A stretch of DNA of 64,000 bases. Source: Acidimicrobiales bacterium (GTDB taxonomy: Bacteria > Actinomycetota > Acidimicrobiia > Acidimicrobiales > Aldehydirespiratoraceae). The notes below the pieces were generated by a model that was given only the letters and a program-made list of their open reading frames with translations, did no database searches and had not been told where the DNA came from. The stretch lies in assembly GCA_965116665.1 (NCBI GenBank), contig OZ220709.1, positions 2,516,062-2,580,061 on the forward strand. The letters are read 5' to 3'. Below are positions 2,343-30,017 of this stretch, one piece after another (positions within the stretch are counted from its first letter, which is position 1; each line of letters starts with the position of its first letter). The position numbers and the translations under genes are program-made.

Positions 2343-3680
2343 TCAGGCCTCCCGGCGGTGGGCGGCGTACTCGAGGCGGAGCAGCCCGCCCGCCACCAGT
2401 GAGCCGGCCAGCACTGCGGCCACCAGCGCCAACTCCACCCGCAGGAACGGCTCCAGGTCGAGATTGGCCGTGACCGCGAAGGCGGCGATCCCCGCAACCC
2501 ATCCTGCCACTGCCAGCCGGGTGTGACCCAGCGCGACCAGTCCCAGCGTCAGCGACAGCATCAGCATCAGACCCCCGCCGCTGGCCGCCAGCAACGCCAT
2601 GTCCGTGCGGCCGAGTTCGTCGCCGAACACGATCCGCACGGCCAGAGGTCCGATGGCCGCGGCCGCCACGGTCGTGGCCGCCGCGGCGGCACCCACCGCG
2701 GCCACGATCTTGATCTGCATGTTGCGGAACCCCACCAGATCGCCCTGGCCGGCCAGGGTGGCCAGGCTGGGCAGCAGGCTCGCCTTCACCGCCTGGAAGA
2801 AGAACAGCGGGATCCGGGCGATGAGCATGCCGTTGAGGAAGACGCCGGGAGCCTCGGGGCCCAGCTCGTCGCCTCCCGCGATGTCCACCGCCACCGGCCC
2901 GACGTTGAGGATGAACGCCTCGCCGATGCTGGCGATCAGCAGGAATCCCATGGCCGGTGTGAGTTCCCGGTACGAGGCCGGTGGTCCCGGTCTGACGAAG
3001 GGCCGGCGGCCGGCGGCCACCACCGCCGCGGCGACCAGCGCGAAGGCGATGGCCAGGCCGTAGGCGCCCACCGCGGCCACCCCGGCCACGGCCAGGCCCA
3101 CGGCCACGGCCATGCGGGTCCCTCCCTCGACCACGAAGTACCAGGCGTACCGGTCGAAGAGGTGGCGCCCGCCGAGGATGCCCCGCACCAGCTGGGTGCC
3201 GGCGAAGGCCCCGAGGGCCAGCACGAGGGCCAGGAGCAGCTCGAGCCGGTCGTCGAGCAGGCTGTCGAGTCCCAGCGGCCAGGCCACCAGCAGCCCGGCC
3301 GCGACCAGCATGAACTGGGCGGCACCGAGGACTCCGGCCCGGCGCAGCACCGGAGCGCTTCCCACTCCCCGGCTGGCCCGATCCGCGGTGGCCCGTGACA
3401 CCTCCTGCTCCAGGGGCTGGAACAGGCCGAAGCCGCCGATGTTGACGAGGGCCCACAGTACGGCCAAGCCTCCGTAGCCCTCGTCGCCCAGGGCATGCCC
3501 GGCTACGACAAGGTACCCGTAGGTCGTGAGCCCGTTGACCACGAGCCCCCAGAAGATCCCCGAGGTGCCGAGGGGCAGCAGGTTCACAATGCGCGCCCGG
3601 AGATCCTTCAAAAACTGTCCGATGGCGCTGTCCTTTGCTCCGCTGTTGTTCGCTTCGCTCACGGGGCCGCTGGGGGCCAC
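2343..3680 (-). CDS. Polysaccharide biosynthesis / MOP-type flippase-like integral membrane protein
   Basis: 445-aa ORF made almost entirely of hydrophobic helices, convergent with (tail-to-tail, opposite strand) the GT2 gene. The first ~15 codons (MAPSGPVSEANNSG) overlap intergenic-repeat copy A, so the true start may lie downstream. Confidence 0.6.
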   Translation of the reverse strand: MAPSGPVSEANNSGAKDSAIGQFLKDLRARIVNLLPLGTSGIFWGLVVNGLTTYGYLVVAGHALGDEGYGGLAVLWALVNIGGFGLFQPLEQEVSRATADRASRGVGSAPVLRRAGVLGAAQFMLVAAGLLVAWPLGLDSLLDDRLELLLALVLALGAFAGTQLVRGILGGRHLFDRYAWYFVVEGGTRMAVAVGLAVAGVAAVGAYGLAIAFALVAAAVVAAGRRPFVRPGPPASYRELTPAMGFLLIASIGEAFILNVGPVAVDIAGGDELGPEAPGVFLNGMLIARIPLFFFQAVKASLLPSLATLAGQGDLVGFRNMQIKIVAAVGAAAAATTVAAAAIGPLAVRIVFGDELGRTDMALLAASGGGLMLMLSLTLGLVALGHTRLAVAGWVAGIAAFAVTANLDLEPFLRVELALVAAVLAGSLVAGGLLRLEYAAHRREA

Positions 3681-3700
3681 GGCCTCGCCAACGCTCGGCG
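3638..3700 (-). repeat. Intercistronic repeat family 1, copy A
   Basis: Minus strand reads GCCGAGCGTTGGCGAGGCCGTGGCCCCCAGCGGCCCCGTGAGCGAAGCGAACAACAGCGGAG. This is near-identical to the copies at 4922, 24817 and 29928. Confidence 0.7.
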
Positions 3701-3749
3701 TAGCGGCGGCAGACCTCCCGGAGTCTAGGAGGCGGCGGGGCCGCCGGAG

Positions 3750-4916
3750 CTAGCTCTGCGAGACGGTCGGCATGCAGAGGCCGTCGAGTTCCCCGACCTG
3801 GATGCGGTCGCGGTTGTCGTAGGTGACCTCGTTGGATGGGTCGACCCGCAGCTTGAACTCGCGGAAGCTCATCTCCAGTGCATCGAAGGCCACCAGACGG
3901 CCCCGCAGCGAGTCCCCGACGCCGAGGATCAGCTTGAGGGCCTCCAGGGCCTGCACACTTCCGACGATGCCGGGCAGCACGCCCAGAACCCCGGCCTCGG
4001 CGCAGCTCGGAGCCATCTCCGGCGGCGGCGGCTCGGGCAGCATGTCGCGGTAGGTGGGCCCGTTGCGTGGATCGAACACCGTGATCTGACCCTCGAAGCG
4101 GAAGATCGACCCGTGCACCACCGGTATGCCGAGTTTCACCGAGGCGTCGTTGAGCAGGTAGCGGCTCGGGAAGTTGTCGGCCCCGTCCACGACCACGTCG
4201 TAGCCCTCGAGGATCTCCATGATGTTGTCGGCTCCCAGCCGGGTGTCGTAGGTGACCACGTTGACGTCGGGGTTCAGCGCGGTCAGCGTCTTCTTGGCCG
4301 AGTCCACCTTGCGGTCCCCCACCCGGTCGACGTTGTGGAGGATCTGGCGCTGCAGGTTGGACTCGTCCACCACGTCCATGTCGATGACGCCGATGGTGCC
4401 CACACCCGCGGCGGCCAGGTACAGCGCCGCCGGGGAGCCGAGCCCGCCCGCGCCGAGCAGCAGGACCTTGGCGTCGAGCAGCTTGAGCTGCCCCTCCTCG
4501 CCCACCTCCGGCACCAGCAGGTGGCGCTGGTAGCGGTTGCGCTGGTCCGGGGTCAGGGTCCGGGGACGCTCCCAGGCCCGGCACTCGTCCTTCCACTTGT
4601 TGAAGCCGCCGTCCATGGACACGACGTCGGTGTAGCCCATCTGCTCGAGAGTGACCGCCGCGAATGCGGAGCGCACGCCGCCGGCGCACATGGCCACCAC
4701 CGGGGTGGACCGGTCTGCGATCCGGTTCTCGATGCTCGACTCGAGCTGGCCCCGGGGGATGTGCACCGACCCGGCGATGGCGCCCTGCTCGTACTCGTCG
4801 GGCTCGCGCACGTCCAGGAGGATCCAACCCTCGGCCAGCAGCTGCTCGCCGGCCGCGGTGTCGACCTCGCGGATCTCGGACTTCGCCTGCTGAAGCAGTT
4901 CTCTGAAACTCGCCAT
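3750..4916 (-). CDS. Rhodanese-ThiF/MoeB-type adenylyltransferase/sulfurtransferase (MoeZ-like, rhodanese domain N-terminal)
   Basis: N-terminal rhodanese domain (LLDVREPDEYEQG...MCAGGVRS...GGFNKW). It is followed by a ThiF/MoeB domain (LLLGAGGLGSPAALYLAAAGVG, NLQRQILH, SCAEAGVLG). Confidence 0.85.
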   Translation of the reverse strand: MASFRELLQQAKSEIREVDTAAGEQLLAEGWILLDVREPDEYEQGAIAGSVHIPRGQLESSIENRIADRSTPVVAMCAGGVRSAFAAVTLEQMGYTDVVSMDGGFNKWKDECRAWERPRTLTPDQRNRYQRHLLVPEVGEEGQLKLLDAKVLLLGAGGLGSPAALYLAAAGVGTIGVIDMDVVDESNLQRQILHNVDRVGDRKVDSAKKTLTALNPDVNVVTYDTRLGADNIMEILEGYDVVVDGADNFPSRYLLNDASVKLGIPVVHGSIFRFEGQITVFDPRNGPTYRDMLPEPPPPEMAPSCAEAGVLGVLPGIVGSVQALEALKLILGVGDSLRGRLVAFDALEMSFREFKLRVDPSNEVTYDNRDRIQVGELDGLCMPTVSQS

Positions 4917-4921
4917 TGATA

Positions 4922-4973
4922 CCCGCTCCTGTTCGCTCCGCTCACGGGCCCCGGCCTCGCAAGCTCGGCCTCT
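4922..4973 (-). repeat. Intercistronic repeat family 1, copy B (shortened)
   Basis: Minus strand reads AGAGGCCGAGCTTGCGAGGCCGGGGCCCGTGAGCGGAGCGAACAGGAGCGGG and ends 5 nt before the ATG at 4916. Confidence 0.65.
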
Positions 4974-4977
4974 GGGC

Positions 4978-5007
4978 CTAAATCCTACCTGTCTTGTCAG
5001 GATTTAG
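4978..5007. terminator. AT-rich hairpin overlapping the sirtuin stop codon (9-bp stem, 12-nt loop)
   Basis: CTAAATCCT (4978-4986) pairs with AGGATTTAG (4999-5007). It sits between the stop of 5004..5786 and the next gene on the same strand. There is no U-tract. Confidence 0.4.
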
Positions 5008-5786
5008 CCACCCGAGCCGTCCATACGGCAGATCATGGGCAGGACATCACTGATGGAGGCGTTGACCAGTACGTCGGCCAGGGAGTCGAACTCGGTGGGC
5101 TCGCCGTTCACGATCACCAGCCGGGCCCCGGAGTGCACCGCGATCACCGCCGTCCGGTTGATGGGCGACACCGCCAGCGTGGTCCCCACCGCCAGGAACA
5201 GATCACATTCGGTCGAGGCCCGCTCGGCCCGGTCCAGGTCAACCGGGTTGAGGCTCTGCCCGAACGACACGGTGGCCGCCTTGAGGATCCAGCCGCACTC
5301 CGGGCACCCGGGGTCATCCTCGCCGGCCCTCACCCTCTCCAGGGCCACCTCGATGTCGTCGCGGTAGTCGCAGGCCAGGCACTGCACCTTGCGGGTGGTG
5401 CCGTGGATCTCCACCACACGCTCGGGGTCGCTGCCGGCCCGCTGGTGGAGTTCGTCCACGTTCTGGGTGATGAGCAGGTGGAGCTTGCCCCGCTCCTCCA
5501 GATGCACGAGCGCCTCATGTCCCCGGTTGGGCTCGACATCGCCCCACAGCGCGCCCGAGGCCCGGCGGGCCCAGTTGCTGCGGCGGACCTCGGGGTCCGA
5601 GACGTAGACATTGATGTTGGAGGCCCGCTCGGCCGCGGGGTCCCGCGTCCAAAGGCCCTTGGGCCCCCGGAAGTCCGGCAGGCCGCTGTCGGTGGAGATG
5701 CCCGCACCGGTGAGCACGGTCACCCGTTCGGCGGCGTCCACCAGCCGGCGGGCCGCGACCGCCGCGTCGGCGGCACCGGTGAGCAT
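5004..5786 (-). CDS. cobB: NAD-dependent protein deacylase, Sir2 family
   Basis: GAGISTDSGLPDFRGPKGLW, TQNVDELHQRAG, and Zn-ribbon cysteines (CLAC...CPEC). Confidence 0.85.
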   Translation of the reverse strand: MLTGAADAAVAARRLVDAAERVTVLTGAGISTDSGLPDFRGPKGLWTRDPAAERASNINVYVSDPEVRRSNWARRASGALWGDVEPNRGHEALVHLEERGKLHLLITQNVDELHQRAGSDPERVVEIHGTTRKVQCLACDYRDDIEVALERVRAGEDDPGCPECGWILKAATVSFGQSLNPVDLDRAERASTECDLFLAVGTTLAVSPINRTAVIAVHSGARLVIVNGEPTEFDSLADVLVNASISDVLPMICRMDGSGG

Positions 5787-5842
5787 CGAGCCAGCGTAGC
5801 GCCAGGGGTGGGGCCGGCTTGGCTCGTCGCCATTGGAGGCGC

Positions 5843-5948
5843 AAGACAGATACAGCAGCAGAATCGTATTTCAATTTCAGTTTGACTTACTGTAACTAAA
5901 AATCAATACTATTTCAGCAATACTTCCCCCTTCAGTTGCAACATTCGG
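5843..5948. promoter_or_regulatory. AT-rich divergent promoter region with reiterated (A)TTTCAG motifs
   Basis: By my count about one third G+C over 5861-5940, in an otherwise very GC-rich window. ATTTCA occurs at 5868, 5874 and 5911. TTCAG occurs at 5876, 5913 and 5931. Confidence 0.45.
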
Positions 5949-5981
5949 CGCTCGCGCGCGCTCTACTTCGGAGAGACTCCC

Positions 5982-6608
5982 ATGACCATCACCAGCAAGC
6001 ACCCTGCGACCATCATCGAGGCCGACGTGGTCACGCTCATTCCCTGGACGGACCACCGCAAGGACGTGTTCGGTCACGACCTCAGGTCGGCCTACGTCGA
6101 GCAGTTCTGGCTGCCGACGCTCGGGCCCTCCACCACCTGGTTCCTGCGGCATTGCGCGGCCGTGCTCGAAGACGCCGACGATGTGGCGGTCAACCTGCGA
6201 GAGACGGCCTGCGCGCTGGGCATCGGCTTCGAGGGCGGCTCCCGGAGCGCGATGGTCAAGACCGTCGCTCGCGCCTGCCGCTTCCGGGCGGCCCGAGCCG
6301 TGGGCTCCACGACGCTGGCCGTGCGCCTGCGCCTGCCTCAGCTCAGCCATCGCCAGCTGCAGCGCCTGCCTGCGTCGCTCCAGCAGCGCCACGGGGAATA
6401 CGTCGCCACCGGCGGAGGGACCGACGGCGTCAGGGAGCAGCTGCTGCGGGCCCGGCGGCTGGCCCTGGGTCTGGTGGAGTGCGGCGACACCCTCAGCGAG
6501 GCCGAGCGGCAGCTGAACCGGCTCAGGTTCCATCCAGCCATCGCGGCCGACGCCGTCCGCTGGGCATGGAGCCTCCATCACGGCCGGGTACCCCCCGAGG
6601 CGGCCTGA
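5982..6608 (+). CDS. Hypothetical protein
   Basis: 208-aa ATG-initiated ORF with GC-rich third positions. I recognise no family. Confidence 0.5.
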   Translation: MTITSKHPATIIEADVVTLIPWTDHRKDVFGHDLRSAYVEQFWLPTLGPSTTWFLRHCAAVLEDADDVAVNLRETACALGIGFEGGSRSAMVKTVARACRFRAARAVGSTTLAVRLRLPQLSHRQLQRLPASLQQRHGEYVATGGGTDGVREQLLRARRLALGLVECGDTLSEAERQLNRLRFHPAIAADAVRWAWSLHHGRVPPEAA

Positions 6609-6652
6609 GAGGGTGCGCGGGTTTGAAGTAGCGTCGGGGCTCCGGCCAGGGG

Positions 6653-7705
6653 GTGCACATGGAGCCAGCAATACCGGACGGCATCGACGGCATCGACGAC
6701 GACTGGCTCTCGCAGGCCATGGGTTCGTCCGTGCGGATCGCCCAAGTGGCCGACATCGGGACCGGGGTCGGGATGATCGGCGCCATCTACCGGGTCACGC
6801 TGGAGGGCGACTGCCCCGACACCGTGGTCATCAAGCTGCCCGGCCTCGACGAGACGGCCCGCTTCACGGCCCAGATCCTGCGCCTCAACATCCGCGAGGT
6901 CGGCTTCTACCGCGAGCTGGCCGCCGAGAGCCCCATCCGGGTCCCCCACTGCCACTTCGGCGCGGTCGACGGTGAGACCCACCAGTTCGTGCTGGTGCTC
7001 GAGGACGTCGGCTCGTACCGGGCGGTGAGCCAGGTCGACGGTATGGGCCCCGCCGACGCCGGGCAGGCCGTGGACGAGCTGGCCGCCTGGCACGCCCACT
7101 GGTGGGGCAAGGCCGGCCCGATCGTGGAGCGTGGCACCGCGATGGCGATCCACGACCCCATCTACCCGATGCTGTTGCCGCCGGTGTTCTCCGACGGCTG
7201 GGCCAAGGTCAGGGGGGCCATGAGCGTCCCCCCGGCGGTGGAGACGGTCGCCGACGGCTGGGTGGAGGCCCTCCCGGAGATGCTGGGGTCCCTGGCCACT
7301 ACCCCGAGCACCCTGGTCCACGGCGACTACCGGGCCGACAACATGTTCTTCGACGACGGCGGCCGGGTCGTGCTGCTCGACTTCCAGGTCATCGGCCAGT
7401 CCATGCCGGTGGGCGACCTGGCCTACTTCGTCACCGGGAGCCTCTCCCCCGCCACCGCCTCTGAGATCGAGCCGGGCCTGTATGGGCGCTGGCTGCAAGC
7501 GTTGGTGGCCGAGGGCGTGCCCGAGTCCGAACTCGACGGGATGTGGGACATCTACCGGGGGGCGGTGCTGTTCTGTGTCTGCTACCCGATGATCGCGGGA
7601 GCGGGCATGGACCTCACCGACGAGCGCCAGCGGGGTCTGCTGGAGGCCACCTTCGAGCGCTTCGAGCGGGCCGCCGACGAGCTGAGCCTGACCGACCTGC
7701 TCTGA
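6653..7705 (+). CDS. Phosphotransferase (APH/CHK-like kinase fold) family protein
   Basis: Catalytic-loop signature LVHGDYRADNMFF followed by VLLDFQ. Confidence 0.7.
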   Translation: MHMEPAIPDGIDGIDDDWLSQAMGSSVRIAQVADIGTGVGMIGAIYRVTLEGDCPDTVVIKLPGLDETARFTAQILRLNIREVGFYRELAAESPIRVPHCHFGAVDGETHQFVLVLEDVGSYRAVSQVDGMGPADAGQAVDELAAWHAHWWGKAGPIVERGTAMAIHDPIYPMLLPPVFSDGWAKVRGAMSVPPAVETVADGWVEALPEMLGSLATTPSTLVHGDYRADNMFFDDGGRVVLLDFQVIGQSMPVGDLAYFVTGSLSPATASEIEPGLYGRWLQALVAEGVPESELDGMWDIYRGAVLFCVCYPMIAGAGMDLTDERQRGLLEATFERFERAADELSLTDLL

Positions 7706-7735
7706 GCCGACGGGTGCCTCGGGACCGCCCGCCGG

Positions 7736-9202
7736 TCAGCGGGCCGCGCTGAACGTCGAGGCCAGCTCGATCAGGGTGCGCACTCCGAAGCCGGTGCCGC
7801 CCTTGGTGATCTCGGCGTCGTCGGACTCGGCCCGGGCCGGGCCGGCGATGTCGAGGTGGGCCCAACAGATGGCGTCGTCCACGAACTCCTTCAGGATCAG
7901 CCCCGCAGTCAGGGCTCCCCCGTGGTTGCCGCCGATGTTCTTGATGTCGGCCACGTTCGACTCGATCTGCTTGGCGTAGTCGGCCGGCAGCGGCAGCGGC
8001 CACACCCGCTCGCCGGCGCGGTCCGCCGCCGCCCGGACCTGGTCGATGAACGCCTCGTCGTTGCCCATCAGCCCGGCGATCGACGGTCCCAGAGCAACCA
8101 TGCAGGCGCCGGTGAGGGTGGCCAGGTCGACGATGGCGTCGGGCTCGTCCTCGCAGGCCAGGGCCAGTGCGTCGGCCAGGATCAGGCGGCCCTCGGCGTC
8201 GGTGTTGAGCACCTCGATGGTCTTGCCGCTGCGGGTGGTCAGCACGTCGCCGGGCCGGGTGGCGTCGCCGCCGAGCATGTTGTCGGTCATGGGCAGGTAA
8301 CCCTTGACCCGCACCGGCGCGCCCACGACGGGCAGCACCGACATGGCCCCGATAATGGCGGCCGCGCCGCACATGTCCATCTTCATGGCCATCATGCCCT
8401 GGGCGGTCTTGATGGACAGGCCCCCGGCGTCGAAGGTGATCCCCTTGCCCACGTACGCGAGCGTCGCCGCGGGGTCTGAATGGGGCTCGTAGGTCAGCTC
8501 CACGAAGCGGGGCGGCTGGCTGCTGCCCCGGTTGACGCCGAGCAATCCCCCGAGACGCTCCGCCCTGATCTCCGCCTCGGTCCAGACCTTGACCTCCAAG
8601 CCGGCCTGTTGGGCGACCTCTGCCGCCTTGTCAGCAAAGACGGGGGCGGTGAGCGAGCCGCCCGGCTCATTGGCGAGATCGCGGGCCACGCACACGCCGG
8701 CCGCGACGGCCGCGCCCCGGGCCACCGCGTCCTTGGCCGCGGCCGCGGCGCTGCCCACGATGTCGACCCGGGCCAGCTTGGCGGAGCCGTCGCCTCCGTT
8801 GTTCCCGCCGGTGGACGACTTGAAGGCGGTGTAGCGGTAGCCGCCGAGGATCACACCCTCGGCCAGGGCCCGGCGGGCCTCGGCCGACCGAACGGAGACG
8901 TCGCCGGGCAGGCTGACCGCGGCGCGGCCGTGGCGCGAGCACGAGCGGGCCAGCATGGCGCCGGCTCGCCGGAGGGTGGCCTCGGTCACCTCGGTGGCCG
9001 GGCCCAGCCCGACCAGCCCGGTGAAGCCGCCCTCGGCCGGCTGGAGGTGGACCTGGTCGGCCTTGCCCTCGAACCCGACGGCCTCGAGGACCGCGGCGTC
9101 GAAGCCGTCGACGCCGGAGGAGACCGCCTCTGAGCTGACCATGGCGATGCTGGCGGTGGCCGCCTTGGGGACCGAGCGGACTGCGTGAACGGTGATCGGC
9201 AT
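7736..9202 (-). CDS. pepA: Leucyl aminopeptidase (M17)
   Basis: M17 signature NTDAEGRLILADAL, plus GKGITFDAGGLSIK. Confidence 0.9.
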   Translation of the reverse strand: MPITVHAVRSVPKAATASIAMVSSEAVSSGVDGFDAAVLEAVGFEGKADQVHLQPAEGGFTGLVGLGPATEVTEATLRRAGAMLARSCSRHGRAAVSLPGDVSVRSAEARRALAEGVILGGYRYTAFKSSTGGNNGGDGSAKLARVDIVGSAAAAAKDAVARGAAVAAGVCVARDLANEPGGSLTAPVFADKAAEVAQQAGLEVKVWTEAEIRAERLGGLLGVNRGSSQPPRFVELTYEPHSDPAATLAYVGKGITFDAGGLSIKTAQGMMAMKMDMCGAAAIIGAMSVLPVVGAPVRVKGYLPMTDNMLGGDATRPGDVLTTRSGKTIEVLNTDAEGRLILADALALACEDEPDAIVDLATLTGACMVALGPSIAGLMGNDEAFIDQVRAAADRAGERVWPLPLPADYAKQIESNVADIKNIGGNHGGALTAGLILKEFVDDAICWAHLDIAGPARAESDDAEITKGGTGFGVRTLIELASTFSAAR

Positions 9203-9227
9203 CCGGCAAGGCTAACGGCCGGACATG

Positions 9228-10139
9228 TCAGCCCGGGGAGGGGGCGGGGAGGTCCTGCTCGAGCGTGAGCGTCGCCGCGAACAGGTCGCCGTGCTCCTCG
9301 ATCCGCTCCAGCACCTCAGCCGCCACGAATGTGAGCGGCTCACCGTCGGCACCGTCGGAGACCTCGTCCCAGGTGACCGGTGTCGATGCGGTGGGGCGGT
9401 CCATCCCCCGCAGCGAGTAGGGGGCGATGGTGGTCTTGAAGCGGGCATTCTGACCCCAGTCGATGAACACCTTGCCGGCCCGGAGACTCCGCTTCATGAT
9501 CGACACCACCTGGGCCGGCATGCGCTGCTCCAGCAGCTGGGCCACCGCCCGGGCGAAGCCCGCCGCATGGTCGTGGGTGTGGGGCCGGTTGAGGGGCACG
9601 TACAGCTGCAGCCCCTTGCTGCCTGAGGTCTTCGCCCAGGCGGCCAGGCTCACCGCTTCCAGGACCTCCCGGATGTGCAGCGCCACCCGGCAGCACTCGA
9701 TGATCGTGGCCGGCTTGCCCGGGTCGAGATCGAACACGACCATGTCGGGCGAGTCGATGTGGCCGCAGCGGGCCATGGGGGCGTGGATCTCCAGGGCGGC
9801 CAGGTTGGCCGACCATGCCAGCGACGCCACCGAGTCCAGCCGGCAGTAGTTGATCTGCCCTCCCCGGTCGCCCGGTCCGGCGCACGTACCCACCCACTCT
9901 GGGCGGTGGCTCGGGCACCGCTTCTCGAAGAACGACTCAGCGGTCACCCCGTCGGGCCAGCGCCTCAGAGTGATCCCCCGGTCGCGGATGTGGCCCAGCA
10001 TCACCGGCGCCACCCTCACGTAGTAGTCGATGACCTGCGCTTTGGTGAAGCCGACGAGCGGGTACATCACCTTGTCGAGGTTGCTCACCGACAGCTGCCG
10101 GCCGCCTACGGTGACCGCCACACGCTCGGGTGCGCTCAC
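9228..10139 (-). CDS. ligD: NHEJ primase-polymerase (stand-alone LigD polymerase domain)
   Basis: VSNLDKVMYP..GFTKAQVIDYY..V.P..L.H..DR..TL.R.PDG, and it lies next to Ku. Confidence 0.85.
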   Translation of the reverse strand: MSAPERVAVTVGGRQLSVSNLDKVMYPLVGFTKAQVIDYYVRVAPVMLGHIRDRGITLRRWPDGVTAESFFEKRCPSHRPEWVGTCAGPGDRGGQINYCRLDSVASLAWSANLAALEIHAPMARCGHIDSPDMVVFDLDPGKPATIIECCRVALHIREVLEAVSLAAWAKTSGSKGLQLYVPLNRPHTHDHAAGFARAVAQLLEQRMPAQVVSIMKRSLRAGKVFIDWGQNARFKTTIAPYSLRGMDRPTASTPVTWDEVSDGADGEPLTFVAAEVLERIEEHGDLFAATLTLEQDLPAPSPG

Positions 10140-10171
10140 CGCTGCTCGCCTTTCTTGGATCGTTGCGGCCG

Positions 10172-11071
10172 TCAGGCCGACCGGCGGACCTGCTCGGCCT
10201 CAGGCTCGGACGCCTCCCCGTCGGCGGAAGCCTCGCTGGGGGCAGGAGCGTTCTCGCCGGCCACGGCCGGATGGCGCTTGCGGGCCTCCTTGGCCGCCGC
10301 CACCGAGGCCTCCAGCGCGGCCATCAGGTCCACGACAGTGTCGGAGGACGGCGAGGGCGCGGCCACCGTAGCGGCCGTGTCGCCGGATGCCTTGCGCTCG
10401 ATGAGCTCCAGCAGGGCCTCCCGGTAGGAGTCGGTGTAGCGGCCGGGCTCGAATTCGGACTCGAGGGCGGCAATGAGCTGGCGGGCCATGGCCGTCTCCC
10501 GCTCGTCCACCGCTATGTCGCCCAGGGAGTCGAAGCCGCCGAGCTCATCGGGGGCCACCAGCTCGTCGGCGTACACCATCGTCGACAGCATCAGCCGGCC
10601 GTCGACCGGGCGGATGGCGGCCAGATGCTGCTTGGAGCGCATCACGAAGTGGCAGATGCCCACCTTGTTGGCCTCGGCCATGGCCTCGGCCAGCAGCTTG
10701 TAGGGCTTGGCCGTGGTCTCGTCGGGCACCAGGTGGTACGCGCTGTCGTAGAACACAGGATCGATGTCGGCGAGATCGATGAATGCGTCGATGTCGATGG
10801 TGCGGGCCGCGACGGGAGCCAGTTGCTCGAACTCGGCCTCGGTGACGGTCACGTAGCCACCCGAGGGCAGCTCGTAGCCCTTCACGATCCGCTCGGACGA
10901 CAGCTCCGAGTCGTCGGCCGACGACACCTTCTTGTACCGCACTCTGGCTCCGGTCTCGGCGTCGAGCTGGTTGAAGCGCACCGTCTTGCGGCTCACCGCA
11001 CTGAACAACTGCACGGGGATCGTCACCAATCCGAAGCTGATGGATCCCTTCCAGATCACTCTCGGCACCAC
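10172..11071 (-). CDS. ku: Ku DNA end-binding protein
   Basis: N-terminus IWKGSISFGLVTIPVQLFSAV. GAGGAGG lies upstream of the GTG start. Confidence 0.9.
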   Translation of the reverse strand: MVPRVIWKGSISFGLVTIPVQLFSAVSRKTVRFNQLDAETGARVRYKKVSSADDSELSSERIVKGYELPSGGYVTVTEAEFEQLAPVAARTIDIDAFIDLADIDPVFYDSAYHLVPDETTAKPYKLLAEAMAEANKVGICHFVMRSKQHLAAIRPVDGRLMLSTMVYADELVAPDELGGFDSLGDIAVDERETAMARQLIAALESEFEPGRYTDSYREALLELIERKASGDTAATVAAPSPSSDTVVDLMAALEASVAAAKEARKRHPAVAGENAPAPSEASADGEASEPEAEQVRRSA

Positions 11072-11146
11072 TGGCCTCCTCGCATCAGCGCGAGCCCGGT
11101 CAAGCCAGGTCTCGGCACGCAGGCCTCCGCACCGCCTGTGGACAGT

Positions 11147-12001: not shown

Positions 12002-12019
12002 CGCGGCTGCACCAGCCGG

Positions 12020-13123: not shown

Positions 13124-13133
13124 GCCCGCAAGC

Positions 13134-19218: not shown

Positions 19219-19242
19219 AGTGGTGGCTCGGAGTGCCGGGGG

Positions 19243-19704: not shown

Positions 19705-19784
19705 CCTCTCGATCCTCGCGCACCGGCCGTAGGCGGGCGCGCATCGTTTCTGGCGCATGTTGCGTCGGTACCATCAGTAGGGCC

Positions 19785-22517: not shown

Positions 22518-23104
22518 CCCCGACCCGGACCGGAACTCTGGCGGTCACAGGAGACGAGGCCGCCGACCGGCTCGTGAACAAAGACCCGCTGGCACTGGTT
22601 CTGGGGATGCTGCTCGATCAGCAGATTCCCATGGAGTGGGCGTTCATGGGCCCCCACCGTCTGGCCGAACGGCTCGGCTCGGGGTTGGACGCCCACGACA
22701 TCTCCGAGCGTGACCCCGAGGCCTTCGCTGCGCTGGTGAGGACCAAGCCGGCCCTGCACCGGTTCCCCGGATCGATGGCCCAGCGGATGCAGGCCCTGTG
22801 CCGGCACGTCGCGGACTGCTACGCCGGAGACGCGGGCGCCATCTGGGCCGATGCCGGCACCGGCGAGGAACTATTCGAGCGACTGCGGGCCCTGCCCGGC
22901 TACGGCGACGAGAAGGCCCGGATCCTGACCGCCGTGCTGGCCAAGCGCTTCGGTGTGCGTCCGGAGGGCTGGCAGGCGCAGGCGGGGGCGTTCTCGGACG
23001 ACCAGCCCCGGTCGGTGGCCGACATCGACGGACCCGAGGCACTCCAGCGGGTTCGGGCGTGGAAGAAAGAACAGAAGGCTCGCGGCAAGAAGAAGGACCA
23101 GTGA
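22514..23104 (+). CDS. HhH-GPD-type base-excision-repair-like protein
   Basis: DPLALVLGMLLDQQIPMEWAF.GP..L..RLG and HRFPGSMA. Its ATG overlaps the aceE stop (ATGA). Confidence 0.65.
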   Translation: MTPTRTGTLAVTGDEAADRLVNKDPLALVLGMLLDQQIPMEWAFMGPHRLAERLGSGLDAHDISERDPEAFAALVRTKPALHRFPGSMAQRMQALCRHVADCYAGDAGAIWADAGTGEELFERLRALPGYGDEKARILTAVLAKRFGVRPEGWQAQAGAFSDDQPRSVADIDGPEALQRVRAWKKEQKARGKKKDQ

Positions 23105-23688
23105 AGCTCCGACCCATCGTCCTCGCCGCGGCCCTGGTGCTCGTGGCCGCGGCTTGCGGGGCCGACGACCCCCCGACCGTCGCCGAGCCTGCGGCCACGG
23201 AGCCCGCCGCCACCGAAGCCGCGGACCAGACCGGCGCTGAGGGCACCGTCGACGAGAGCGCCGCGGCTACCGGCCCGGGAGATGTGCCGGACCTCGACAT
23301 GATCAACGTGCACACCGACGAGGCCGTCAACCTCCAAGCGGTCGTCGACGGGTCCACTCCCCTGCTGTTCTGGTTCTGGGCGCCCCATTGACCGGTCTGT
23401 CAGAGGGAGGGCCCTCTGCTTGAGCAGTTTGCTCAGGACAACTCCGACACCGTGACAGTGGTAGGAATCGGCGCTCAGGACGATCTTGCCTTCGCCGAGC
23501 GGTTCGTATCGCAGACCGGAACCACCTTCACCATGCTGTGGAGCGACTCCAACGAGTCCTGGCGCCACTTCGGTGTGCGCCGGAATTCCACGGTGATGCT
23601 GCTCGACCGCGGCGGAAACGTCGTGGAGGGAAGCGCCGGCAGCTACGACCCGGACAGCCTCATCGGGCAGCTGGCCACCCTGACCTGA
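23101..23688 (+). CDS. Thioredoxin-fold (TlpA/ResA-like) lipoprotein, candidate selenoprotein. In-frame TGA at 23389-23391 read as Sec (U-P-V-C)
   Basis: GTG at 23101 overlaps the upstream stop (GTGA). Lipobox LVLVAAAC. The sequence LLFWFWAPH-TGA-PVCQREGPLLEQFAQ continues in the same frame into track ORF 23452..23688, which encodes the rest of the redoxin fold. Confidence 0.6.
23401..23437 (+). promoter_or_regulatory. SECIS-like hairpins downstream of the TGA at 23389
   Basis: CAGAGGG-AGGG-CCCTCTG (23401-23418) starts 9 nt after the TGA. A second hairpin lies at 23419-23437 (cuUGAGC-AGUUU-GCUCAgg). Confidence 0.45.
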
Positions 23689-23691
23689 GCG

Positions 23692-24816
23692 ATGAGGATG
23701 CCTCGCCGATTCCGAGTTGCCGTGGCGCTCTTTGCCGCGGCCCTGCTGGCCTCAGCCTGCGGAACCGACGGGGAGCCGAGTCCGGACGACGGCGCCGCGG
23801 TGGTGACGCCCACGACCGGCGCCGCGGCTGAGGCCGCGCTCGACGAAGCCCAAGCGGAAGCCGATGCCGCCGCCGCCGAGGCCGAAGCAGCCCAAGCTCT
23901 AGCAGCCGAAGCCGAGGCCGAAGCCCAAGCAGCCGCCGCCGAAGCAGCCCAGGCCGAAGCCGAGGCCCAAGCAGCCGCCGAAGCAGCCGACGCCGCGCAG
24001 GCGGCCGCCGAAGCAGCCGCCGAAGCCCAGGCCGAAGCCGAGGAACACGCAGCCGCCGAAGCCGAGGCCCAAGAGGCCGCCGAAGCGGCCGCCCAAGCAG
24101 CCGCCGAAGCCGAAGCCGCCGCCCAAGCAGCCGCCGAGGCCGAAGCCCAAGCCGCCGCGCAAGCCGAAGCCGAGGCAGAAGCGCAGGCCGCCGCCCAGGC
24201 AGCCGCCGAAGCCGCCGCGCAGGCCGAAGCAGAAGCTCAGGCAGCCGCCGAAGCCGAGGCCGAGGCGCAGGCAGCTGCTGAGGCCGCGCCCACCACCGCC
24301 GCCGCGCCCACGACCACCGCCCCACCCGCAAGCACCGCCGCACCCACCACCACCGCAGCGCCCACCACCACCGCAGCGCCCACGACCACGGCCGCACCCA
24401 CCGTCGAGATTGATGTCCCGGCTCAGGACATGACCGACCTGCGCACCGGCGCGACGGTCAACCTGCGGGACCTAGCGGACGGTTCAACGCCCCTGCTGCT
24501 GTGGTTCTGGGCGCCCCATTGACCGATCTGCCGGCGAGAGGCATCGTCGGTCGAGCAGTTCGCTCGAGTCAACGAAGGCAAGGTCATCGTCATAGGCGTG
24601 GGCGGCGCGGACAGCCTGGCCCAGGCCGAGAGCTTCACAGCCTCCGCCGGCGGTCCTCCCCACATGCTGTGGAGCAACTCCTACGAGGCGTGGACTCACT
24701 ACGAAGCCGGCAACCCCAACCTGATACTGCTCGACGGCGCGGGCGTGAACGTCGTTGAGAGAGTCGGCAGCTTCAGCCAGAGCCGCCTCCAGGACGCTCT
24801 GGACGGCCTCAGCTAG
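23692..24816 (+). CDS. Thioredoxin-fold lipoprotein paralog with a long Ala/Glu/Gln stalk, candidate selenoprotein. In-frame TGA at 24520-24522 (U-P-I-C)
   Basis: Lipobox LLASAC. The sequence LLLWFWAPH-TGA-PICRREASSVEQFAR continues in the same frame into track ORF 24598..24816. Confidence 0.6.
23818..24402 (+). repeat. Coding low-complexity region: Ala/Glu/Gln-rich segment (23818-24288) followed by a Pro/Thr/Ala linker (24289-24402)
   Basis: Translation is AEAEAQAAA-type degenerate repeats followed by (APTTT)n. Confidence 0.7.
24521..24567 (+). promoter_or_regulatory. SECIS-like hairpins downstream of the TGA at 24520
   Basis: GACCGA..UGCC-GGCGAGA-GGCA..UCGGUC (24521-24552). A conserved second hairpin UCGAGC-AGUUC-GCUCGA lies at 24551-24567. 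Confidence 0.4.
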
Positions 24817-24914
24817 AGGCCGAGCGACCGCGACTGCGAATGGCACGACTCCTGGAGGTGGCGAGCGAGGCCGTGGCCCGAGCGGCCCGTGAGCGCAGCG
24901 AACAAGAGCGGGAA
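24817..24914 (+). repeat. Intercistronic repeat family 1, copy C
   Basis: Starts at the TAG stop (TAGAGGCCGAGC...). Core is GAGGCCGTGGCCCGAGCGGCCCGTGAGCGCAGCGAACAAGAGCGGGAA at 24867-24914. Confidence 0.7.
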
Positions 24915-24923
24915 GCCTAGACA

Positions 24924-24966
24924 ATTCACCTTCCGTTCACCGGTGTTCACTTGAGGTTCACGGCTT
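24924..24966 (+). promoter_or_regulatory. PHO-box-like array: four direct repeats of (G/A)TTCAC at 11/10/11-nt spacing, upstream of pstS
   Basis: ATTCACCTTCC GTTCACCGGT GTTCACTTGAG GTTCACGGCTT. This resembles the actinobacterial PhoP direct-repeat unit GTTCACC. Confidence 0.6.
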
Positions 24967-25055
24967 CCGAAGCCTTGTGAAACCTTGCCCCTTCTAGGTT
25001 GCTGCTCGACCCGCGGGGCGCGGGCTTGCCAGCCATTTCGTGGAGGGTCCAAGAG

Positions 25056-26036
25056 GTGCGTCGGTCACGACAACGGCTCCTGTCTATTCCGGTGATGCTG
25101 AGCCTGTCGCTGGTGGCTGCCGCGTGCGGCGGCGACGAGAACGAAGAAGAGACGGCCGCGGTCTCGGGCGAGGTGAACATCTCGGGTTCGTCGACGGTTG
25201 AGCCGATCTCGATCCGGGTGGCTGAGCTGTTCGAGGACGTGAACCCGGATGTGTCGGTGACTGTGGACGGGCCCGGCACCGGCGACGGCTTCAAGCTGTT
25301 CTGCGAAGGCGCGACCGACATCTCCGACGCCTCACGCCAGATCAAGGACGCCGAGAAGGAGGACTGCTTCGAGGCCGGCATCACCAACATCGTCGAACTC
25401 AAAGTGGCCGTGGACGGCATCGCGGTGATGACCAACGCCGGCAATGACGCCGTCGAGTGCCTGAGCTTCCACCAGCTCTTCGACCTCATCGGCCCCAACG
25501 GCGAGGGCACCAGCACCTGGGCCGAGGCCGCCGCGGGCCTGCCCGCCGCGCCGCTGGACATCTTCGGGCCCGGCGAGGAGTCAGGCACCTTCGACTCCTT
25601 CATCGAGATCGTCATCGAGCACCTCGCCGGGGAAGCCGGCACCGACGCCACCACCCGCACCGACTACAGCCCCTCCGGCGACGACAACGTCATCCTGCAG
25701 GGCATCCAGTCCAGCGACACCAGCCTGGGCTGGGTCGGCTTCGCCTTCGCCGTCAACGCCTCGGGCGTGAAGCTGCTCGAGGTCGACGGCGGCGACGGAT
25801 GCGTGCATCCGACCGAGGACACCATCGCCTCCAACCAGTACCCGATCAGCCGGGACCTGTGGATCTACGTCGACGCGGACAAGGCCGCAGCCAACCCCGC
25901 CATCGCCGCCTACCTCGACTTCTACGTCTCCGACGCTCTCACCCAGGCCGTCAGCGAGGTCGGCTACGTGCCCCTCACCGAGGCAGCCCACACCGAGACC
26001 GCCGACCGCTGGCACAACCGCACCCTCATCACCTAG
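25056..26036 (+). CDS. pstS: Phosphate ABC transporter substrate-binding lipoprotein
   Basis: Lipobox LVAAAC and ISGSSTVEPI...GPGTGDGF..FC.G..DISDASR. GTG at 25056 is preceded by GGAGGG. Confidence 0.9.
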   Translation: MRRSRQRLLSIPVMLSLSLVAAACGGDENEEETAAVSGEVNISGSSTVEPISIRVAELFEDVNPDVSVTVDGPGTGDGFKLFCEGATDISDASRQIKDAEKEDCFEAGITNIVELKVAVDGIAVMTNAGNDAVECLSFHQLFDLIGPNGEGTSTWAEAAAGLPAAPLDIFGPGEESGTFDSFIEIVIEHLAGEAGTDATTRTDYSPSGDDNVILQGIQSSDTSLGWVGFAFAVNASGVKLLEVDGGDGCVHPTEDTIASNQYPISRDLWIYVDADKAAANPAIAAYLDFYVSDALTQAVSEVGYVPLTEAAHTETADRWHNRTLIT

Positions 26037-26085
26037 AGCACCGGCCAGCCAGGCCCGGACCTGACCAGGAAGCCCCTTCGGCCGA

Positions 26086-27237
26086 ATGACCGACACGAGC
26101 GTCGCACACCCAGAACTCCTCACCGTTGATCAGCTTCAGATCGCGCCTTCCCGCAGGCACCGCGAAGTGATAATCCGCTACAGCCTCCTGGTGACGGCCC
26201 TCGTGTCGGTCCTGGTCAGCACGCTGATCGTGTGGAGCCTCCTGCGTGAGGCATGGACCTTCATCACCGGTGTGGTCTGGGCCGACACCTGGGGACAGCA
26301 GGGCTGGTTCCCCCGGCGGGGCCTCTATGACATTCCCACGATCGTCGTTCCCTCGCTGATCGTCACCGGAATCGCCATGGTGGTGGCCGGCCCGCTCGGG
26401 CTGGGGGCCGCGGTGTACCTGTCGGAGTACGCCAACCGGAAGACCCGGGCCTGGCTGAAGCCCGCGCTGGAGATCCTGGCCGGCATCCCCTCGGTCGTCC
26501 TGGGGTTCTTCGCGCTCACCTGGATCGCGCCCAACATCGTGGGACGCATCGGCAAGACCACGTTCCTGGTGTTGGGTGCGGTCATACTGCTCGGATACGC
26601 GGTGATCTCCGCGGGAATCGCACGATCCAAGATCAAGCAGTACCGGGAGGGCGCCGCCGACCCCTCGGCCCGCATCTCGGCGGTGCTGTCAATAGCCGTG
26701 CTGGTGGTCGTCTTCGCCCTGGCGGCGGCCTGGACCCTCAACGTGTGGCTGAACTTCGCGCCCAACAACGCCGGGTCGCTGGCCGCAGCCGGCATCGGCG
26801 TGGGAATCCTGACGATCCCGCTGGTGGCCTCGATCTCCGAGGACGCCATGGCAGCCGTGCCCGATTCGCTGCGAGAGGCCTCGGCCGGGCTCGGGGCCCG
26901 CAAGATGGCCACCGCCGCCACGGTTGTGCTGCCTGCGGCCATCTCCGGCATCGTGGCCGCCTTCATCGTGGCCATATCCAGGGCCATCGGCGAGACCATG
27001 GTGGTCTTCATGGCCGCCGGCGCCGCCGACGCGGCCCGGTGGACCTACACCCCCTTCGAAGGAGGCCTGACCATGACCGCGGCCATGGCCTCACTGGCCT
27101 CGGGCACCGACAGCGTCGTGGGCGAGGGCCTGACGTTCCAGAGCCTCTACTTCGTCGGTCTGCTGCTGTTCCTGATCACGTTGAGCCTCAACATCGTCGC
27201 GTCGCGTTTCGTGTCGAAGGTCCGGGAGGCCTACTAG
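26086..27237 (+). CDS. pstC: Phosphate ABC transporter permease
   Basis: Multi-helix permease containing the EAA-like loop (SLREASAGLGARKM), positioned between pstS and pstA. Confidence 0.9.
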   Translation: MTDTSVAHPELLTVDQLQIAPSRRHREVIIRYSLLVTALVSVLVSTLIVWSLLREAWTFITGVVWADTWGQQGWFPRRGLYDIPTIVVPSLIVTGIAMVVAGPLGLGAAVYLSEYANRKTRAWLKPALEILAGIPSVVLGFFALTWIAPNIVGRIGKTTFLVLGAVILLGYAVISAGIARSKIKQYREGAADPSARISAVLSIAVLVVVFALAAAWTLNVWLNFAPNNAGSLAAAGIGVGILTIPLVASISEDAMAAVPDSLREASAGLGARKMATAATVVLPAAISGIVAAFIVAISRAIGETMVVFMAAGAADAARWTYTPFEGGLTMTAAMASLASGTDSVVGEGLTFQSLYFVGLLLFLITLSLNIVASRFVSKVREAY

Positions 27238-27285
27238 TGGGACCGGGCCGATGATCAGCGAGGCACTGGTCTGCGAGGGCGCAAG

Positions 27286-28248
27286 ATGATCAGTCGCCTC
27301 TCGGATGACCGGTCCCGGGCCGCCATCGCCGCCTCGATCGAGCGGCGCCGGGTAGACACCCGGGGCCTGCTGTTCAAGACGCTGCTCCAGTCATGCCTGC
27401 TGATCACGCTGGCCCTGCTCGCCGTGCTGCTGATGACCGTCGCGTTGGACAGCACCGACCAGCTCGGCACCCGGCTGTGGGACTTCCTCCAGGGCACGCT
27501 GCGGTCCCGGTCCACCGACGAGCGGCTCGGCATCCACCAGGGCATGTACGGCTCGCTGTGGATCGCCATCATCGTGGCCGTGCTGGCCTTCCCCATCGGG
27601 ATAGGCGCCGCGGTCTACCTCGAGGAGTATGCGCCCAGAAACCGCTTCACCTCGTTCATCGAGGTCAACATCCGCAACCTGGCCGGTGTCCCGTCGGTGG
27701 TGTACGGCCTGCTCGGTCTGGCTCTGCTGCTGAACGGCCAGATCTTCGGCCTCGACCGCCTCACCGGCGGGAGCTCGGCCCTGTCGGGCGGGATCACCCT
27801 GGCCATCCTCGTGCTGCCGATAGTGGTGATCACCTCCGGCGAGGCCTTCCGGGCGGTGCCCACCGAGCTGCGGGAGGGCGCCTACGGCGTCGGGGCCACC
27901 AAGTGGGAGATGATCCGGACCCAGGTGCTGCCCTACGCGGCACCGGGAATCCTCACCGGCACGCTGCTGTCGATGGCCCGGGCGGTGGGCGAGGCCGCCC
28001 CGCTGATCCTGGTGGGCGCCATCTCCGGGCGGCTCGGAGACAATCCCGGGCTCTTCGACATCAGCGCCCTCACCGATCAATTCACCGCCCTGCCCATCGT
28101 CATAACGAGCTGGACCGTGCAGTCGGGCCGGGACGCCGGCTTCACCACGGCCGCAGCCGCAGCCATCGTCGTGCTGCTCGTGTTCGTGCTAATGATGAAC
28201 TCCGCCGCGATCCTGCTACGTAACCGGTTCGAGAAAAAGAGAGGCTGA
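27286..28248 (+). CDS. pstA: Phosphate ABC transporter permease
   Basis: [17 protein letters not shown] permease loop; position in the operon. Confidence 0.9.
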
Positions 28249-28249
28249 A

Positions 28250-29155
28250 GTGTCGATGACGGACGACTCTCCCCGAGTGACAGACGACGCTCCCCGGCTG
28301 ATCGAGCGGCCCGTGGCGGCCGCGCCCCAGTCCGGCGTCGACGGCGACGGTGCCGGCCCGGTCGTCGCCACCAGCCGCGACACCGTGTTCAGCTCGCGCG
28401 ACGTGAGCGTCCACTACGGCACTTTCCGGGCAGTGCGCGACGTCACCTTCGACGTGTACCGCAACGAGATCATGGCCCTCATCGGCCCGTCGGGCTGCGG
28501 CAAGTCGACCGTGCTGCGCTGCTACAACCGCATGAACGACCTGATCAAGGAAGCCCGGGTGAGCGGCACGATCACCTACCGGGGCACCGACCTCTACGAC
28601 GAAAGGGTCGACCCGGTCGAGGTTCGCCGCCGCATCGGGATGGTGTTCCAGAAGCCCAACCCGTTCCCCAAGTCGATCTACGACAACGTCGCCTACGGAC
28701 CCAGGGTGGCCGGCCAGAAGAAGGGCCTCGACGACATCGTCGAGAACTCACTGCGCAAGGCGGCCCTGTGGGAGGAGGTCAACGATCGCCTCAAGGACTC
28801 GGCTCTGAGCCTCTCAGGCGGTCAGCAGCAGAGGCTGTGCATCGCCCGGGCCATCGCGGTGGGTCCTGACGTGTTGCTGATGGACGAGCCGTGCTCAGCA
28901 CTCGACCCGATCGCCACCGCCCGCATCGAGGATCTCATGCAGGAGATCAAGCAGGACTACACGATCATGATCGTGACCCACAACATGCAGCAGGCGGCCC
29001 GGGTCAGCGACACCACCGCCTTCTTCACGGCCGACATCCGCTCCGAAGGCGACACCCGAACCGGCATCCTGGTGGAGGTAGACACAACCCAGAAGATCTT
29101 CTCCAACCCCTCCGACGAGCGCACCGAGAACTACGTCACCGGACGGTTCGGGTGA
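28250..29155 (+). CDS. pstB: Phosphate ABC transporter ATP-binding protein
   Basis: Walker [10 protein letters not shown], signature LSGGQQQRL, Walker B LLMDEP. Carries a ~40-aa N-terminal extension. Confidence 0.92.
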
Positions 29156-29165
29156 GGCTTCGAGC

Positions 29166-29927
29166 ATGACCGAGCAGATACGCAAGTCATTCCACGCCGA
29201 GATGGACGAGATCAGCGGCTTGATCGTGCAGCTCGCGGCCCGGGCCGGGGACTCGGTCGCCCGGGCCACCGACGCGCTGTTGCGCTACGACCTGGTGGAG
29301 GCCCAGCAGATCATCGACGACGACGACGTCATCGACATGGCCTCTCTCGAGGTCGAGGAGAAGTGTCAGAGCCTCCTGGCCCTCCAGCAGCCCATGGCCG
29401 GCGACCTCCGCCAGATACTGGCCGCCATGTGGATCACCGCGGAGCTGGAGCGAACCGGCGGGCTGGCCTGCAACATCTGCAAGGGAGCCCGCCGGATGTT
29501 CCCCGCTGAGCTGCCCCCGAAGCTGAGGGGTCTGATCTCGGAGATGAGCGAAGAGGCGATCCGGCTCATCCGCCTGTCGGTGGATTCCTACTCCGAGCAC
29601 GACGCCGGCCTGGCCAGCGCCCTCGACGACATCGACGACCGGCTCGACAGCCTCCACCGCGTGTTCGTGCGCAACCTCCTGGAGGTGAGCCGGTCCAGAG
29701 ATCTGGACGTGCAGCCCGCCATGCAGCTGGCCCTGATCGCCCGCTACTACGAGCGCATAGGCGACCACGCCGTCAACGTCAGCGACCGGGTCCGCTACAT
29801 GGTGTCCGGCGTCATGCCGTGGCGGGACAAGATGACCCGCCACCCGACCCGGGAGCAGCGCGTCGTCCACGAACCCGGATCGGATCCGGCCGAGATGTCC
29901 CCCAACGGCGAGGACACGGCGGGCTAG
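29166..29927 (+). CDS. phoU: Phosphate signalling complex protein PhoU
   Basis: Two PhoU repeats (E..ERIGDHA-type motifs), immediately after pstB. Confidence 0.9.
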   Translation: MTEQIRKSFHAEMDEISGLIVQLAARAGDSVARATDALLRYDLVEAQQIIDDDDVIDMASLEVEEKCQSLLALQQPMAGDLRQILAAMWITAELERTGGLACNICKGARRMFPAELPPKLRGLISEMSEEAIRLIRLSVDSYSEHDAGLASALDDIDDRLDSLHRVFVRNLLEVSRSRDLDVQPAMQLALIARYYERIGDHAVNVSDRVRYMVSGVMPWRDKMTRHPTREQRVVHEPGSDPAEMSPNGEDTAG

Positions 29928-30017
29928 GAGGCCGAGCAAGTAGACGGGACAATGCGACCCATACGGCGTGAGGCCGTGGCCCGAGCGGCCCGTGAGCGAA
30001 GCGAACGAGAGCGGGAA
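29928..30017 (+). repeat. Intercistronic repeat family 1, copy D
   Basis: Starts at the phoU TAG (TAGGAGGCCGAGC...). Core is GAGGCCGTGGCCCGAGCGGCCCGTGAGCGAAGCGAACGAGAGCGGGAA at 29970-30017. Confidence 0.7.

Follow-up and report, generated by a model that had tools for sequence, protein, structure and literature searches.

Mycobacterial interspersed repetitive units (MIRUs) and miniature inverted-repeat transposable elements (MITEs, a term used here as defined in PMC3184786) are the described systems against which the repeats reported here have chiefly to be measured. MIRUs, first described by Supply et al. 1997 and summarised in PMC3184786, are units of 40-140 nt that lie between genes of the same direction, with ends that overlap stop codons, short flanking direct repeats, imperfect terminal inverted repeats (TIRs), tandem arrays of variable length and small internal open reading frames (ORFs). 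With their short direct repeats and imperfect TIRs, they have themselves been regarded as possibly MITE-like (Delihas 2011, PMC3184786). Among insertion sequences (ISs), the IS1031 subgroup of IS5 targets TNA (PMC1676026), and the actinobacterial IS1237 and ISLxx6 combine GAGGTGG... ends with TTA/TAA duplications (PMC2516522). The window analysed here is a 64,000-nt stretch of contig OZ220709.1, taken from an Acidimicrobiia metagenome-assembled genome (MAG) that consists of a single contig of 3.91 Mb with 69% G+C (the source genome, G000; other G-numbers denote comparison genomes). An earlier inspection, the sequence-only reading, had described four short intercistronic repeats in the window and likened them to MIRUs, all of whose traits listed above recur in the family. 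We argue that these repeats are better filed as an IS5-type MITE because they possess TIRs, a 3-nt target duplication and ends matching those of an IS5-family IS found in congeners; it is highly probable that they are non-autonomous elements derived from, or moved by, a TNA-duplicating IS of that family. No description of this repeat family was found in the literature that could be searched.

Form and abundance of the repeat

With a profile of the 53-nt core region, nhmmer gave 140 matches in the source genome (plus strand, 68; minus strand, 72), of which 129, distributed over 106 loci, reached the threshold of 20 bits that we used for counting. The supposed family of four is therefore only a fraction of what the genome contains. 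Most of the loci are single (92), the remaining 14 being arrays of two (6 loci), three (7) or four units (1). An all-against-all alignment of the copies served to define their boundaries and forms. In the long form, present at 46 loci, the core is preceded by ~45 nt and followed by ~50 nt, and 44 such copies align end to end with common boundaries. In the short form (38 loci), a middle segment links the 5' end to the core; at a further 18 loci the core stands by itself, and at 4 the tail is present without the 5' end.

The full element measures 136-139 nt and is built from a 5' TIR of ~20 nt (GAGGCCGAGCG, then A or G, then ATAGGCGAG), a short arm, the 49-nt centre, a tail of ~45 nt and a 3' TIR that terminates the element as an inverted repeat (...CTCGCCTATCCGCGTGGCCCC). 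It contains no transposase gene, and its sole open frame is a stop-free read-through whose start is not conserved. Tandem arrays have periods of 139, 138, 104, 96, 94, 92, 64 and 43-44 nt; an array of three 43-nt core units together with a 5' end lies at G000:C1:2166226-2166312. In ~15 copies, including the array of three 64-nt units, GGCCC-GTGAGCG-CAGCGAAC is replaced by the core variant GGCCC-TCAGGTCG-CAGCGAAC, examples of which are found at G000:C1 204781, 290857, 1014988, 1026293-1026421 and 3849335.

The core can itself be interrupted. At G000:C1:939073-939166 the 49-nt core is split by a second element, ~90 nt long and richer in A+T (...CTCCAAATATGTGCGGGTCTTGCTTCTATATGACGGGTTTCTCTAC...), with a duplication of GTGAG, and related ends adjoin core fragments at positions 22765, 936751, 1022280, 2594776 and 3338972 of the source genome. 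No transposase adjoins this second element at the two sites examined (22765 and 3338972), and the 939073 copy has no match in Rfam. It seems to target the repeat core.

A search of the whole genome and of related genomes, as the sequence-only reading had proposed, showed the core to be present both in the source genome and in 33 of 36 congeners, which carry from 4 to ~400 copies each; it is absent from 24 sampled genomes of other families in the order. An identical core is found, in addition, in genomes titled Ca. Poriferisodalis (21-55 copies), Microthrixaceae (19 copies) and Ca. Aldehydirespirator. As Poriferisodalaceae and Aldehydirespiratoraceae are separate clades of sponge symbionts (PMC11706023), the identity of the core sequence hints at horizontal spread between clades. 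Many of the records of this group of Acidimicrobiia MAGs derive from sponge metagenomes, judged by isolate names and PMC11706023.

Termini, target sites and a partner insertion sequence

The argument for transposition rests first on the ends of the element. The 5' end (GAGGCCGAGCGAATAGGCGAG) and the reverse complement of the 3' end (GGGGCCACGCGGATAGGCGAG) constitute TIRs, with 72.5% of cells paired compared with 37-47% when the partners were slid against each other. Copy D of the window (29928..30063, plus strand) is full-length at 136 nt, aligns with 43 other long copies and lies downstream of phoU and upstream of a PAS histidine-kinase gene, both on the plus strand. Its 5' TIR (GAGGCCGAGCAAGTAGACG) is followed by the hairpin arm, the 49-nt core (29969-30017), the tail and the 3' TIR. 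The element hence extends well beyond position 30017, where it had originally been taken to end, and gives way to a second TAG. The left TAG (29925..29927, plus strand) is the stop codon of phoU, and the right one (30064..30066, plus strand) emerges from comparison with empty sites. In G018, G017 and G007 the unoccupied site reads ...gacTAG, continuing directly into GGC/AAT...ATG; the source genome has ...ggCTAG, the element (GAGGCC...GGCTC), TAG and then GGT...ATG. Copy D is a clean insertion with a TAG target duplication.

The phoU stop codon is occupied in other relatives too. Unrelated inserts of 46-68 nt, also ending in ...TAG, are located there in G002, G001, G016 and G003 (loci L123-L126), some of them with a repeat of 9-10 nt from the end of the gene. 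The site is a hot spot for insertions.

Ten long copies are bordered by direct repeats ending at +99/+100 from the core start (TTA, CTTA, CTAA, CTAG and others), and several copies are flanked by TTA/TTA or TAA/TAA in the way that copy D is flanked by TAG. Longer direct repeats, of 9-13 nt, flank three copies and were considered as an unusual form of target duplication. This idea was rejected: the repeats are identical to the 3' end of the element and are therefore read as remnants of head-to-tail doublets, comparable to the array of three 139-nt units.

Occupancy at the other three window sites also varies among relatives, so that all four loci are empty or differ in unit number somewhere. 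At site B, five congeners (G016, G017, G003, G011 and G015) have no insert, AGGTAGGATTTAGCC running directly into ATG. A single unit is present there in G018, G001 and G010 have two units each and G008 has ~2; the forms seen in G002 and G004 are variant or partial. Four congeners (G018, G010, G003 and G015) lack the element at site A, with CCTGG adjoining AAGGAC, and the site is filled in G016, G017, G008, G011 (2 units) and G002. Site C is nearly empty in G001, with a gap of 11 nt versus 102 nt, shorter in G003 and filled in G010.

The flanks of the element suggested a link to IS5 and TNA, after which a partner IS was sought in relatives. Five congeners (G003, G046, G035, G007 and G011) carry an IS of 957-963 bp flanked by TTA or TAA, the ends of which are GGGGCCGCGCGGATAGGTGAC in G003, GAGGCCGCGCGGATTGAC in G046 and G035, and GAGCGCGCGCAAATAGGYG in G007 and G011. 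The ends of the repeat match those of the IS in register at 12-18 of 21 positions, with the best agreement (up to 18/21) to the G003 IS and 15-16/21 to the right end of the G046 IS; random genome 21-mers have a mean of 6.1 matches, and the probability of 14 or more is 2.6e-4. The IS of G007 encodes a transposase of 308 aa that, by its profile matches, is a member of the IS5 family (NF033580, 155.5 bits against a cut-off of 110; PF13340, DUF4096, 51.5 bits; PF01609, DDE_Tnp_1, 42 bits). In a genome search, related transposase copies in other congeners scored 126-154 bits on NF033580. Among the 61 genomes searched, 11 possess this type of transposase above the cut-off, 9 of them congeners. All nine have at least 59 core copies, and the transposase is absent from all seven congeners in which fewer than 30 copies were counted, a co-occurrence that lends weak support because the genomes are related.

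We propose that transposase from the ~960-bp IS, supplied in trans, would bind both ends of the element, which would insert at a T-rich trinucleotide (TTA, TAA or TAG) that is then duplicated. In a genome of 69% G+C, such trinucleotides would survive mainly outside coding frames, and the duplication would regenerate a stop codon; since TNA sites would be mostly non-coding and the stop restored, many surviving copies would abut stops, on either strand. Truncation, deletion between GAGCGG motifs and tandem duplication could subsequently generate the short forms, the core-only units of 43-44 nt and the arrays.

Several observations weigh against this proposal. No IS5_3 transposase was detected in the source genome (best tblastn E = 0.88; no PF13586 match and no IS427/IS1031-type domain), where NF033580 gives only weak matches, to another IS; yet at least 15 near-identical copies form a subfamily in this genome, which is without the partner IS. 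The interior of the IS contains no counterpart of the element's interior or core. The 3' TIR is lacking at 38 loci and both ends are lacking at 18. The triplet ahead of GAGGCC is TNA at only 22 of 84 loci as against CNA at 36 of 84. In this G+C-rich genome, T>C changes may have eroded older target duplications to CNA, the T of a stop codon being the exception. Finally, targeting by a transposase alone predicts neither the 49:25 orientation nor the two-fold excess at stop codons (27% vs 13.4%) described below.

A partner within the source genome was also considered and rejected, as none of the ~18 IS families and smaller repeats examined there has matching ends and the PF01609 matches belong to other ISs. 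Two repeated segments fall within the window: a copy of a ~1.42-kb IS with at least 8 copies in the genome (61582-62988), and a 1-kb segment with one further copy elsewhere (59119-60143). In all, ~70 repeated regions of this sort, belonging to several IS families, are present in the source genome.

High copy number, intergenic location, short G+C-rich hairpins and composite arrays are also what would be expected of repetitive extragenic palindromic (REP) sequences or bacterial interspersed mosaic elements (BIMEs), spread by a REP-associated tyrosine transposase (RAYT, of the Y1 type). The source genome, however, has no match to Y1_Tnp (PF01797), for which 6 of 14 control genomes were positive. 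Moreover, inverted repeats matching a DDE-type IS form the ends and are accompanied by a 3-nt target duplication, and no REP-like conserved unit of tetranucleotide plus hairpin was seen. We regard an origin of this kind as exceedingly improbable, and retain descent from, or mobilisation by, an IS5-family IS as the most probable explanation of the family.

Relation to neighbouring genes

With up to three mismatches allowed, GGCCCGTGAGCGNAGCGAAC matches the window at exactly four sites, 3648-3667 (minus), 4931-4950 (minus), 24884-24903 (plus) and 29987-30006 (plus), against a mean of 0.05 matches of the core pattern in shuffled sequence. The four copies are thus where they had been placed, and much of what had been said of their surroundings holds as well. 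Copy C (24816..24913, plus strand) is of the short form, composed of the 5' TIR GAGGCCGAGCG, a unique middle of 38 nt and the core, without tail or 3' TIR. It separates a 72-aa ORF upstream from a gene for a PstS-type binding protein downstream, on the plus strand, and its first G (24816), the start of GAGGCC, completes the TAG stop (24814-24816) of the 72-aa ORF; copy D likewise begins at an upstream stop, directly after the TAG of phoU. The ATG mini-ORFs of copies C and D do end in ...EAVARAARERSE(Q/R)ERE, and reading frames are not the same between copies, as had been noted. On the minus strand the order is Sir2, copy B, ThiF/rhodanese gene, copy A and a gene for a 445-aa membrane protein. 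Copy B (4922..4973, minus strand) is a mini form in which AGAGGCCGAGCTT is joined to the core without 9 nt; it begins 31 nt past the Sir2 stop, ends 5 nt ahead of the ATG (4916) of the ThiF/rhodanese gene and is inserted between that ATG and the native Shine-Dalgarno (SD) sequence (AGGTAGGA). Copy A (3638..3700, minus strand) is a decayed mini form, the 5' end having shrunk to CGCCGAGCGTT; its core (3688-3638) has several substitutions and two 1-nt insertions, and the start of the longest ORF of the following gene, that of the membrane protein, falls within the copy at 3680.

Statistics on orientation, stop codons and 5' junctions were computed on gene calls made in this analysis (3,472 genes covering 89% of the source genome), with neighbours identified by Pfam. 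The sequence-only reading held that every copy points in the direction of its flanking genes. This is true of the window; genome-wide it survives as a bias, with 49 copies in co-directional gaps having the orientation of the genes and 25 the opposite one (p = 0.007). By form, the ratio of same to opposite is 18:10 for long, 18:11 for short and 11:2 for core-only copies. Many further copies occupy convergent or divergent gaps. The motif is accordingly genome-wide and mildly orientation-biased, and it has no Rfam match, rather than being confined to four sites without bias or belonging to an annotated RNA family.

Contact with stop codons is likewise real and partial. An end falls on a stop codon at 23 of the 84 TIR-bearing loci (27%; p = 5e-4), when 13.4% of usable non-coding TNA/TAG sites are stop codons, and at 16 of the 84 it is the 5' end that falls on the upstream stop. 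Many solo 5' ends recovered in a search with the TIR only also follow immediately after stop codons. Some ORFs extend for 12-30 nt into the element, in most cases for 16 nt to an internal TAG. At G000:C1:2224624 and 1328994, solo 5' ends follow directly after a stop codon, and the ATG of the long arm, with an SD-like GGAGG or AGGCAG ahead of it, appears to start the downstream gene.

Taken together, such traits raise the prospect of a MIRU-type intercistronic device, in which the host would keep the element as a translation relay, mini-ORFs overlapping the upstream stop and providing an SD sequence or start to the gene that follows. Stop contact above expectation, both overall (23/84 vs 13.4%) and by the 5' end (16/84), the 49:25 orientation bias and the variable unit number of arrays all speak in its favor, as do the ATG mini-ORFs of copies C and D, the element between native SD and ATG at site B and the similar traits listed for MIRUs in PMC3184786. 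The element at site B even carries AGGAG 9-10 nt ahead of the ThiF/rhodanese start. Nevertheless, this AGGAG is probably a single inherited orthologous copy, and the wider role of SD donor to downstream genes was rejected because the AGGAG variant is not enriched at starts (3/15 vs 7/89, p = 0.16). A small conserved protein was rejected on similar grounds, the ATG being missing at the expected place in 44 of 85 copies with a long 5' arm and the remainder being divided among frames 22/12/7. One third of copies in co-directional gaps point the opposite way, many lie in convergent or divergent gaps, element-free orthologous sites are common among congeners, and the elements have TIRs, a partner IS and a duplicated target. 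We therefore consider a translation relay of this type to be very unlikely.

The likeness to MIRUs is nonetheless partly supported. It extends to small size, intergenic position, stop-codon contact, arrays with variable unit number and filled and empty sites; it fails in that orientation is biased without being absolute and that neither the start nor the frame of the mini-ORFs is conserved. In other words, the analogy fits the look of the copies in operons, not what they are. Compared by described traits rather than by sequence, the present family differs from MIRUs in belonging to another phylogenetic group, in having no conserved mini-ORF start or frame, in its orientation of 2:1 instead of a uniform one, and in having an identifiable cognate IS whose ends match its own.

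Rarely, the element has entered a coding sequence. One of its frames (...ARPWPERPVSAANKSG...) is open across the whole element, and in a DUF5318 gene (97 bits, in two stretches; G000:C1:3772394-3772954, locus L170:95-655) a full long-form copy lies in frame, between the parts bearing CxxC and VTYVFG; this is one case only. An open frame throughout and an in-frame copy inside a gene recall the Rickettsia palindromic elements, from which the family differs in that in-frame copies are exceptional, most copies being intergenic, and in its recognisable IS partner.

The 49-nt centre and its place among mobile elements

In 28 diverse copies the 49-nt centre is nearly invariant, and the ends, arm and tail are variable. 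Among copies located by the TIR alone, the core is intact in 77 of 82 and otherwise missing altogether. Conversely, orthologous copies at fixed sites do decay by substitutions and indels, as seen for copy A of the source genome and for the copies at site B in G010 and G001; it thus seems that the active lineage, and not each locus, keeps the centre invariant.

Such conservation brings to mind a functional RNA or protein-binding module that would act in the transcript and be merely spread by the transposon ends. Consistent with this are the near-invariance in 28 copies while the rest varies, the intact-or-absent pattern (77/82), the 11:2 co-orientation of core-only units with genes, and the occurrence of the same exact core in genomes titled Ca. 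Poriferisodalis, Microthrixaceae and Ca. Aldehydirespirator. The check for covariation and RNA structure put forward by the sequence-only reading gave no encouragement. Neither the window nor the element has a match in Rfam, at the gathering threshold or at E <= 1. RNAalifold, applied to 28 diverse long copies from many genomes, returned a covariation term of -0.25 kcal/mol, with compensatory change in 1 of 23 pairs. A hand-drawn structure has marginal covariation (0.149 vs 0.135 when shuffled, 22/500), and its pairing is what conserved inverted-repeat ends would give. Folding was not better than that of shuffled sequences (z = -1.14 on one strand and -1.15 on the other; core alone, +0.46), an all-pairs covariation scan was swamped by invariant G/C columns, and outer-stem duplexes are weakly more stable with their own partner than with another (-15.75 vs -14.75 kcal/mol, p = 0.01). 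A structured RNA was accordingly rejected, with no support from RNAalifold, pair counts or folding z-scores. As fixed-site orthologous copies also gather substitutions and indels, we judge a transcript-level module that simply travels on transposon ends to be very unlikely.

It is tempting to speculate, more broadly, that the centre is a module with its own function beyond that of passive cargo, for example a protein-binding site or a signal at the level of the transcript, though we hold this to be doubtful. Were it so, the centre may be needed for the spread or retention of the element and be selected in one orientation relative to transcription; it may also disperse and amplify as a 43-nt unit without the transposon ends. 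In that case, function combined with horizontal spread among bacteria that share a host would account for the identity of the core in genomes titled Ca. Poriferisodalis and Ca. Aldehydirespirator.

Set beside described mobile elements, the family is a new example of a well-known kind, with an unusually conserved 49-nt centre. In common with IS5-derived MITEs, whose partners are of the IS1031/IS427-like type (e.g. IS1237 and ISLxx6 of Leifsonia xyli, PMC2516522), it is shorter than 200 bp and devoid of a transposase gene, has TIRs that match an IS5-family IS of ~960 bp, ends that begin GAGG or GGGG and, in several copies, a T-rich 3-nt duplication (TTA or TAA), and occurs in numerous scattered copies whose sites are filled in some relatives and empty in others. 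It departs from them in an interior that is unrelated to the IS and a centre that is better conserved than the ends, in the many copies without one or both ends, in the tandem amplification of core units, in its mild orientation bias, and in that the partner IS is missing from the source genome and from most congeners with hundreds of copies. With the REP/BIME and enterobacterial repetitive intergenic consensus (ERIC) sequences of enterobacteria it shares abundance, G+C richness, intergenic location, modularity and the specific insertion of another small element inside it; unlike them, it has no RAYT gene and possesses inverted-repeat ends of IS type with a target duplication.

A large part of the odd sequence between genes in these Acidimicrobiia MAGs is accounted for by the element, which also underlies apparent mini-ORFs, SD sequences that are out of place, gene ends that are extended or clipped, and inserts in frame. 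Masking it during annotation is advisable. Its filled and empty sites and variable arrays provide ready strain markers for uncultured symbionts. The family also poses a modest but real puzzle, namely how such elements are maintained and exchanged when a MITE is present at hundreds of copies with its transposase mostly missing, and with an interior that is better conserved than its ends.

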